From Acidobacteriota bacterium (GTDB lineage Bacteria > Acidobacteriota > Vicinamibacteria > JAXLQT01): a stretch of 64,000 nucleotides of DNA. This document shows, piece after piece, positions 23,560 to 24,248 of the stretch (the stretch's first letter is position 1; the number at the start of each line of letters is the position of its first letter). Made by a program: the position numbers and the translations under genes. The notes below the pieces were generated by a model. It did no database searches. It saw only the letters and a list, made by a program, of their open reading frames with translations, and was not told the origin of the DNA. The stretch spans positions 11,567 through 75,566 of the forward strand of contig JAXLQT010000008.1 of the NCBI GenBank assembly GCA_046331505.1, given 5' to 3'.

Positions 23560-24248
23560 CCCCGGGGCTCCGGGAAGAGCGGGTCCGTGCCCGCTTGCGG
23601 ATCGCGGACGCGGGCCGATCGGCATTGCGGTCTGTAGGGCGGGGGCTTGTCCCCCGCCGGTTTGCTGGTCGCGGGACGGGGGCCGGATGGGCATTGCGGT
23701 CTGTAGGGCGGGGGCTTGTCCCCGCGCGGTTTGCTGGTCGCGGGACGGGGGCCGGATGGGCATTGCGGTCTGTAGGGCGGGGGCTTGTCCCCCGCCGGTT
23801 TGCTGGTCGCGGGCGGGGGCCCGATCGGCATTGCGGTCTGTAGGGCGGGGGCTTGTCCCCCGCCGGTTTGCTGGTCGCGGGGCGGGGGCCCGATCGGCAT
23901 TGCGGTCTGTAGGGCGGGGGCTTGTCCCCCGCCGGTTTGCTGGTCGCGGGGCGGGGGCCCGATCGGCATTGCGGTCTGTAGGGCGGGGGCTTGTCCCCCG
24001 CCGGTTTGCTGGTCGCGGGGCGGGGGCCCGATCGGCATTGCGGTCTGTAGGGCGGGGCTTGTCCCCCGCCGGTTTGCTGGTCGCGGGGCGGGGCCGATCG
24101 GCATTGCGGTCTGTAGGGCGGGGGCTTGTCCCCCGCCGGTTTGCTGGTCGCGGGGCGGGGGCCCGATCGGCATTGCGGTCTGTAGGGCGGGGGCTTGTCC
24201 CCCGCCGGTTTGCTGGTCGCGGGACGTCGGCGCCATCATCATCATCAC
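23556..24248 (-). other. ORF spanning the repeat array (230 aa repetitive peptide), coupled at both ends. Real versus fortuitous is unresolved.
   Basis: GTG-ATGx4 start overlaps the upstream TGA (TGATG). Its stop overlaps the NrfD ATG (ATGA). The peptide has 23-aa repeats (RDQQTGGGQAPALQTAMPIGPPP) and passes through all three repeat frames via the 1-nt indels. Confidence 0.25.
23612..24232. repeat. Tandem array of 9 x 69 bp, each unit containing a GC-rich palindrome (GTAGGGCGGGGGCTTGTCCCCCGCCGGTT).
   Basis: Read directly from the sequence. Nine near-identical 69-bp units with a few 1-nt indels. The stem GGCGGGGG/CCCCCGCC has a CTTGT loop. The array lies between the FeS-subunit stop (24245) and the NrfD start (23559). 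Confidence 0.95.

Follow-up and report, generated by a model that had tools for sequence, protein, structure and literature searches.

The 64-kb window, by which we mean the whole stretch of DNA analyzed here at its full length of 64,000 nucleotides, carries a three-gene module on the minus strand consisting of genes for a multihaem cytochrome c, a 4Fe-4S dicluster subunit (FeS) and an NrfD/PsrC-type membrane subunit (NrfD), with a tandem array of palindromic repeats (array 1) occupying most of the FeS-NrfD junction. The FeS subunit contains the twin-arginine motif RRGFL, as read from its translation. The original prediction placed the FeS and NrfD genes on the minus strand in the same operon, and this assignment held because the pair is adjacent and in the same order at ~75 related loci. 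The features around array 1, listed from the NrfD gene to the cytochrome gene, are:

22273–23559, minus strand: gene for the NrfD/PsrC-type membrane subunit, downstream cistron (Pfam NrfD, E = 1e-36)
23556–24248, minus strand: 230-codon open frame that overlaps the FeS stop (GTGA) at one end and the NrfD start (ATGA) at the other, no Pfam match
23560–23606 (47 nt), minus strand: degenerate partial tenth unit with no REP hairpin (read from the sequence)
23607–24221, plus strand: array 1, nine head-to-tail units of 67–69 bp (Tandem Repeats Finder and unit listing)
24222–24247, minus strand: FeS-proximal leader with a (TGA)4/(ATG)4 trinucleotide run (three-frame translation)
24245–25195, minus strand: gene for the 4Fe-4S dicluster subunit, upstream cistron (Pfam Fer4_11, E = 4e-19)
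25155–25883, minus strand: gene for the multihaem cytochrome c, which opens the three-gene module as its first cistron (Pfam Cytochrome_C7)

An exact-protein look-up found no identical protein on record for the FeS protein, NrfD, the 230-aa array open reading frame (ORF) or a 681-aa extended ORF. Across the whole window, Rfam at gathering thresholds matched no family, and no tRNA or tmRNA genes were present.

Two repeat arrays between respiratory genes

Tandem Repeats Finder assigned to positions 23615–24223 a period of 69 with 8.9 copies and 96% matches. When phased at CGCGACC in the mRNA sense, the units of array 1 measured 69, 67, 68, 69, 69, 68, 69, 69 and 67 nt. The 1–2-nt differences in unit length were all indels inside G or C homopolymer runs, and for this reason some of them may be sequencing errors. 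Every unit carries the core GTAGGGCGGGGGCTTGTCCCCCGCC and is composed of a GTAG-tagged REP joined to ~44 nt of locus-specific DNA, with the REPs starting at 23634, 23703, 23772, 23840, 23909, 23978, 24047, 24113 and 24182 and their GTAG located on the plus strand, the operon's template strand. The core is a GC-rich perfect palindrome with an 8-bp stem, a 5-nt loop and GTAG directly 5′ to it, and this GTAG is present in all copies of the REP in the window. A search with the 29-nt core GTAGGGCGGGGGCTTGTCCCCCGCCGGTT at up to 3 mismatches returned 16 matches in the window vs 0 in 100 shuffles. The array had been described at first as nine 69-bp units exactly filling the intergenic gap, each with a perfect 8-bp stem within a 28-nt core. 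Our analysis retained the nine units and amended the rest: the units are 67–69 bp long, the array leaves 23 nt of the 685-nt gap next to FeS and 47 nt next to NrfD, the core as counted here has 29 nt, and the perfect stem was found in seven of the nine units, the exceptions being the unit at 23703, where the 3′ arm is scrambled, and that at 24047, which lacks one G of the stem.

The partial tenth unit contains a small GCGGG/CCCGC hairpin and a Shine-Dalgarno (SD)-like GGAG 8 nt upstream of the NrfD ATG. On the FeS side of the array, the (TGA)4/(ATG)4 run provides four in-frame FeS stops (FYYFYGL followed by four stop codons) and, in the +1 frame, overlapping GTG/ATG starts (VMMMMAPT). The FeS gene ends with TGATGATGATGA, in which the overlapping GTG and the four ATGs open the 230-codon frame; the TGA of this frame overlaps the NrfD ATG.

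The window contains another array of the same REP, which was absent from the original prediction and sits between the genes for cytochrome c oxidase subunits III and IV:

47717–48343, plus strand: cytochrome c oxidase subunit III gene (Pfam COX3)
48349–48804, minus strand: array 2, 11 head-to-tail units of 38–42 bp with the same 29-nt REP core (Tandem Repeats Finder)
48805–48870, plus strand: a twelfth, degenerate copy of the REP (GGCGG-CAATGAG-CCCGCC), then the native leader of COX4 with its SD GGAGAGG (read from the sequence)
48871–49119, plus strand: prokaryotic cytochrome c oxidase subunit IV gene (Pfam COX4_pro)

Array 2 has a period of 42 with 10.8 copies and 96% matches by Tandem Repeats Finder, and each unit is made of the REP and ~13 nt of adjoining local DNA. 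The TAG stop of COX3 lies within GTGTAGGG, with the first REP stem beginning 10 nt downstream. The COX3 protein has the same sequence as NCBI MFN7972576.1, encoded by a metagenome-assembled genome (MAG) labelled Acidobacteriota, and a contig with an identical COX3 is present in sample SRR26348421. The COX4 start was chosen by the position of the SD and the length of the orthologs (87 aa).

The GTAG of array 2 is on the minus strand, again the template strand of the operon, and the mRNA of both operons reads ...GGCGGGGGACAAGCCCCCGCCCUAC. A GTAG-tagged hairpin scan of the 64 kb detected 20 REP copies in two clusters and no singletons, all copies of this REP in the window belonging to arrays 1 and 2. 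The GC skew keeps one sign over the whole window and the two arrays are opposite in orientation; thus, they point the same way with respect to transcription and opposite ways with respect to replication. An orientation rule relative to replication was rejected on these grounds, and one relative to transcription was ruled out by a survey of the same REP in other genomes, which counted 24 vs 26 copies in the two orientations using crude gene calls. With two arrays only, their shared orientation relative to transcription proves little.

A GTAG-tagged REP and its candidate transposase

Scanning the 21-nt stem-loop against a genome collection with one genome per species yielded at least 128 copies in at least 111 stretches from at least 45 genomes. 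Among the matches listed, GTAG stood immediately 5′ of the stem in 108 of 128 copies (45 other genomes), and the host labels included Anaeromyxobacteraceae and other Myxococcota, Methylomirabilia, Chloroflexota, Planctomycetota, Chthonomonadaceae, Poribacteria and others. The untagged copies were mostly single Firmicutes matches with a T run after the stem-loop and are probably unrelated terminators. Stem variants with compensatory changes were found in other genomes (GCGAGGG/CCCTCGC, GCTGGGG/CCCCAGC, GGAGGGG/CCCCTCC and GGAAGGG/CCCTTCC). The copies outside the window were spread over many contigs, with 15 in one Anaeromyxobacteraceae MAG, and were mostly intergenic among the matches listed. 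Many formed inverted doublets 30–150 bp apart (L009, L033, L042, L068, L074, L087 and L111), and others head-to-tail mini-arrays (L011, L016, L055, L076 and L196). The head-to-tail runs in other genomes had periods of 34–95 bp (40, 61, 83, 95 and 34). The original observation that the unit length is a multiple of 3 thus applies to both arrays of the window (69 and 42) and not to the arrays of other genomes.

A GTAG tag combined with a GC palindrome is the signature of REPs that are recognized by REP-associated tyrosine transposases (RAYTs) (PMC3733652, PMC2817692, PMC8266576), and the Pseudomonas REP GTGGCGAGGGGGCTTGTCCCCCG described by Nunvar et al. 2013 includes 15 nt of the stem-loop, GGGGGCTTGTCCCCC (PMC3686654). 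Consistent with this, a Y1_Tnp gene (Pfam) flanked by our REP on both sides was found in a Myxococcota MAG (L076). Its homologs are annotated as RayT or REP-associated tyrosine transposase, and all five homologs tested scored above the curated cutoff of the NCBIfam model NF047646, ‘REP-associated tyrosine transposase’. In total, five independent RAYT loci were compared, represented by seven fetched stretches (L193/L194, L195, L196, L197/L198 and L076). A REP copy was located 27–75 nt upstream of the RAYT start codon at all five, and four of them (L193/L194, L196, L197/L198 and L076) also had an inverted copy at the 3′ end of the gene or shortly beyond it; L195 had upstream copies only, and five more head-to-tail copies followed the RAYT gene of L196. 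No RAYT gene was present within the 64-kb window. By its placement at these loci, the REP is identified as the putative DNA partner of a RAYT/TnpA-REP clade.

These results bear out the original view of the element as REP-type: the GTAG tag and the GC palindrome are both there, and the repeat is the cognate of RAYT genes in other genomes. Absence of the core elsewhere had been named as the outcome that would speak against that view, and the core proved to be abundant in other genomes; the suggestion of a mobile repeat family likewise gained ground, as the copies are dispersed in other genomes and presumably mobile. We conclude, with a probability of about 0.85, that one GTAG-tagged REP makes up both arrays as head-to-tail clusters, and that this REP belongs to a known kind of selfish bacterial repeat and is not a new type of element.

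Probable origin of the arrays and their possible effects

The junctions that contain the arrays are short in relatives. A MAG labelled Deltaproteobacteria (L057) shares the cytochrome c, FeS and NrfD gene order in an orthologous three-gene module with 71–79% nucleotide identity, and its FeS stop is separated from the NrfD GTG by 12 nt containing GGAGG. In the ~75 metagenome loci with relatives of the FeS gene (59–86% identity), the estimated FeS-NrfD gap ranged from −31 to +91 nt and was mostly within a few nucleotides of zero. Two loci carried palindromic material of their own at this junction, a different GTAG REP doublet in L178 and another palindromic insert in L115. Similarly, the COX3-COX4 gap was 34 and 47 nt in relatives with 70–71% identity vs 527 nt in the window. 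The COX3 C-terminus is conserved to the residue, the relatives ending at the same residue with TGA. Because the related junctions are compact, arrays 1 and 2 are lineage-specific insertions into once-compact junctions.

From the comparison with relatives, we propose that a single REP copy landed in the compact FeS-NrfD junction and, separately, another in the COX3-COX4 junction. The REP would then have been reiterated in tandem, taking along adjoining local DNA of ~44 nt in array 1 and ~13 nt in array 2. This tandem reiteration is suggested by the locus-specific non-REP segments, the distal partial unit and the variants common to neighboring units: the last unit of each array is partial or degenerate, adjacent units share variants, and the non-REP parts of the units had no significant match in the window or in ~200 fetched loci. 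Large REP clusters are known to consist of the REP reiterated with its flanking DNA (Di Nocera et al. 2013, PMC3733652), and a head-to-tail arrangement is under-represented in most REP families (PMC3733652). The route of reiteration was likely replication slippage or unequal recombination between the hairpin-forming copies; by sequence, these two processes and the RAYT itself are candidates alike for the driver. A larger composite mobile element was ruled out, as the non-REP segment of the 69-bp unit had no significant match in any fetched locus.

At the RNA level, operon conservation leads us to infer that the arrays are co-transcribed with their operons. The predicted fold contains one hairpin of −19 kcal/mol per unit in both arrays, in line with the ~9 stable hairpins in the operon mRNA foreseen at the outset. 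These hairpins lack a U tract and persist in the predicted fold of the whole spacer, with a z-score of about −5. The RNA of array 1 is composed of 45% C, 29% G and 6% U, and a scan of array 1 found neither intrinsic terminators nor internal σ70 promoters. On balance, the arrays most likely act as tolerated selfish insertions, which would have broken the ancestral coupling of stop and start in translation and left NrfD and COX4 to rely on their own SD. The array 1 RNA, if untranslated, could invite Rho-dependent polarity. REP hairpins protect upstream mRNA in enterobacteria (Stern et al. 1988, as cited in PMC3184786), and by analogy with these enterobacterial REPs the hairpins of both arrays may shield the upstream mRNA segment from 3′ exonucleases.

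Repeats of this kind call for caution about the assembly, and the arrays themselves, or their copy numbers and indels, might be products of repeat mis-assembly. The indels between units all fall in homopolymer runs, as is typical of long-read errors, and a 1.6-kb short-read contig matching the window at 100% identity breaks off within the first REP of array 2, which marks this array as hard for assemblers. We nevertheless regard an artefact as very improbable: distinct substitutions occur in blocks of neighboring units, unlike the pattern left by collapsed or duplicated reads, there are two independent arrays, their flanks join correctly to both genes, and similar head-to-tail arrays of the same REP exist in other assemblies, including beside RAYT genes. 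Palindromic repeats of ~29 nt at regular spacing also recall a CRISPR-like array or several intrinsic terminators in a row, and the chance of either is close to negligible. The would-be spacers of 40 nt and 13 nt are the same in every unit, so that the array is not CRISPR, just as the original prediction maintained; no Rfam family matched; and since the stems are not followed by a U tract and a scan of the array for terminators was negative, the hairpins do not qualify as intrinsic terminators.

With the arrays taken as genuine clusters of a REP, it may be asked whether they do more for their hosts than persist. They might be adapted intercistronic regulators, with the hairpins retained for their control over the proportion of upstream to downstream subunits through stabilization of the upstream mRNA, ribosome stalling at a stop near the REP, or Rho-dependent polarity over the untranslated C-rich spacer. 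This idea draws on the position of both arrays between subunit genes of membrane respiratory complexes, in the same orientation to transcription and the opposite orientation to replication, on the rut-like composition of array 1 RNA, on the independent gain of palindromic inserts at the FeS-NrfD junction in the lineages of L178 and L115, and on the closeness of the first stem of array 2 to the COX3 stop. In E. coli, expression of the gene upstream can be reduced by a REP that lies this near its stop codon. Against it stand the compact FeS-NrfD junction of the ~75 relatives, whose working operons imply that array 1 is dispensable for the operon, the lack of orientation preference for the same REP in other genomes, and the fact that the shared orientation is based on n = 2 arrays; we therefore consider adapted regulation unlikely. 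Translation of the arrays offers another role. Ribosomes that finish at the FeS stop would restart at the overlapping GTG/ATG, cross the stop-free array and end at the TGA on the NrfD ATG, forming a MIRU-like bridge that maintains the coupling; alternatively, array 1 would encode an N-terminal extension of NrfD, for without the 1-nt homopolymer deletion near 23815, should it be a sequencing error, the frame runs on into NrfD and gives it ~230 additional repeat residues. The frame at 23556–24248 does overlap the FeS stops (GTGA/ATGA) and the NrfD start (ATGA), no stop interrupts any of the three sense frames in either array, the two periods in the window are divisible by 3, and adjacent array 1 units have indels of −2 and −1 that restore the frame. 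MIRU ORFs whose ends overlap the adjacent genes of a polycistron are reported in PMC3184786, and REP-encoded insertions within ORFs are known (PMC3733652). Three open frames in a 69-nt unit would, however, arise by chance in ~40% of cases at ~75% GC, according to a rough composition-based estimate, and the repeat does not persist at the peptide level, as the one array 1 ORF reads the same DNA in three frames. At the COX3 stop, array 2 lacks a start codon, and its sole ATGA overlap sits in the loop of the degenerate REP, 54 nt ahead of the better COX4 start. In other genomes the periods of arrays of this REP are not divisible by 3, and an 8-bp GC hairpin every 69 nt would impede ribosomes. The bridging pattern of the array 1 ORF also depends on single-base homopolymer indels, which are possibly sequencing errors. 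We judge a translated bridge or extension to be improbable.

A coding repeat was set aside as the main reading on account of the missing Pfam match and the drift of frame within the ORF, and the 230-codon ORF is probably not a real protein, given the same two observations and the openness of all three sense frames. The multiple-of-3 periods and the exactly bridging ORF of array 1 nonetheless hint at selection on translation, which the view of the arrays as tolerated junk does not predict. As a long shot, multiple-of-3, stop-free REP arrays may be tolerated or even selected at translationally coupled junctions, where they would keep the coupling, shield the C-rich 0.7-kb spacer from Rho and let copy number tune subunit ratios in respiratory complexes; this would be a solution like that of the MIRUs, reached independently of them from a RAYT-type REP.

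Our preferred reading, clusters of a selfish GTAG-tagged REP, has practical and general consequences. Gene callers will extend NrfD or COX4 through the stop-free arrays or call a spurious 230-aa repeat protein, and arrays of this kind break short-read assemblies, as happened with one contig here. The comparison of filled and empty junctions suggests that a selfish REP can grow to 0.5–0.7 kb within tightly coupled respiratory operons without destroying them, and the RAYT/REP system, with an almost invariant 25-nt REP, is extended to many poorly studied GC-rich phyla. The arrays would be of wider interest if they were found to alter subunit stoichiometry or to be translated.

Comparison with known repeat systems

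The closest counterparts are the GTAG-tagged REPs and REPtrons (Di Nocera et al. 2013; Nunvar et al. 2010 and 2013; Corneloup et al. 2021), with which our REP shares the palindrome, the GTAG, the compensatory stem changes, the copies dispersed over other genomes and mostly intergenic there, the linkage to RAYT genes and the clusters reiterated with flanking DNA. The sequence resemblance is close for the Pseudomonas REPs such as the one described above. The hosts here are, by their labels, uncultured Acidobacteriota, Myxococcota, Chloroflexota, Planctomycetota and Methylomirabilia instead of Gammaproteobacteria. In contrast to most REP families, with their scarcity of head-to-tail copies, the REP in the window exists solely as long head-to-tail arrays of 9 and 11 units, and, unlike in a REPtron, a RAYT of the window genome's own was not seen in the 64 kb.

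The BIMEs of E. coli and Salmonella (malE-malF, hisJ-hisQ) are also intercistronic REP clusters transcribed as stable RNA hairpins. BIMEs are built of alternating REPs with defined linker motifs and protein-binding sites, whereas the window arrays are direct repeats with locus-specific linkers. The likeness to BIMEs that the original prediction drew does not extend to this architecture, since 9 of 9 copies in array 1 and 11 of 11 in array 2 share one orientation per array. Inverted doublets of the same REP in other genomes correspond to the REPINs of Bertels and Rainey; none occurred in or near the window arrays, which, for want of an inverted pair, cannot form the long REPIN hairpin that is thought to be the mobile unit.

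The MIRUs of Mycobacterium, described by Supply et al. 1997 and summarized in PMC3184786, are likewise direct tandem repeats of 40–100 bp between the genes of a polycistron, with GC-rich internal inverted repeats in their units as here, and the array 1 ORF overlaps the stop and start codons of its neighbors in the manner described there. MIRUs are not known as RAYT partners, and no sequence relation is expected. The 5′ overlap is absent in array 2, and translation of the array 1 ORF is putative.

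Array 1 and the FeS-NrfD junction

The 69-bp units of array 1, the nine REP units (GTAG-tagged GC-rich palindromes) lying between the minus-strand FeS and NrfD genes (23607-24221), all contained the motif ATG-CCG-ATC, two units reading ATG-CCC-ATC-CGG. This motif resembles the NrfD start of relatives, ATG-GGA-CCG-ATC(-CGG); the NrfD gene of the window carries ACG at the position aligned to that start and begins 27 nt further upstream. The flank amplified in array 1 may therefore carry the region where NrfD ancestrally began, although so short a match could arise by chance. The FeS gene closes with a trinucleotide run that provides four in-frame stops, compared to a single TGA or TAG in relatives; the same run reads as four ATG codons in the +1 frame and as DDDD in the NrfD frame. 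The FeS-NrfD junction was also invaded independently in other lineages, as found at L178 and L115, two metagenome loci encoding relatives of the FeS protein together with NrfD.

Features at FeS-NrfD junctions
24233-24247, window: trinucleotide run closing the FeS gene, TGATGATGATGATG
1310-1375, L178: junction insert, a GTAG REP doublet of a different kind, GTAGGAGCGGAATCC...GGATTCGCCTCCTAC
3950-4075, L115: junction insert, a 90-nt palindromic sequence, unrelated

A separate tandem repeat of 219/438 bp with 75-78% matches was observed at 20493-21891, within a multihaem cytochrome gene (19555-22242, plus strand, 895 aa). It represents iterated CxxCH haem-binding modules of the protein and bears no relation to the REP arrays.

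REP and RAYT across phylum labels

The 25-nt REP, almost invariant in sequence, and a clade of its transposase partner RAYT with 55-70% protein identity were found in genomes whose labels span at least seven phyla (L002-L112, stretches with the REP stem-loop; L193-L198, stretches with RAYT genes), including long-read MAGs such as a 5.7-Mb Poribacteria chromosome and a 6.1-Mb Chthonomonadaceae contig. Phylum label did not order RAYT identity to the Myxococcota query; this suggests horizontal spread or very strong constraint, with some mis-binning possible. In the Chloroflexota MAG CAXXUG01, the REP was embedded in a longer repeat (L003, L004, L049, L054, L096 and L108); at six loci among the matches listed, the 25 nt or more flanking it on either side were near-identical, so the REP there may be a piece of a larger mobile element.

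The source MAG carries the NCBI label Acidobacteriota. The closest match to its FeS-NrfD module, among the genomes retrieved, was a Deltaproteobacteria-labelled MAG (71-79% nucleotide identity), and the best COX3 relatives reached 74% identity at most, their labels, where given, being mostly Planctomycetes. The taxonomic placement of the source lineage is uncertain.

Array 2 and the COX3 stop codon

The original prediction listed array 1, which stands, but missed a second array between the plus-strand COX3 and COX4 genes, sharing the 29-nt REP core of array 1.

Features at the COX3-COX4 junction
48338-48346: COX3 3' end, GTG TAG GG (ATC TGA in relatives)
48349-48870: array 2, eleven 42-bp units, and a degenerate twelfth copy

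Array 2 occupies a COX3-COX4 gap of 527 nt, compared to 34-47 nt in relatives. The GTAGGG at the COX3 end includes the stop codon and faces the first REP of the array. This motif may be a relic of an inverted REP copy that supplied the TAG stop, an origin of stop codons already described for GTAG REPs (PMC3733652).
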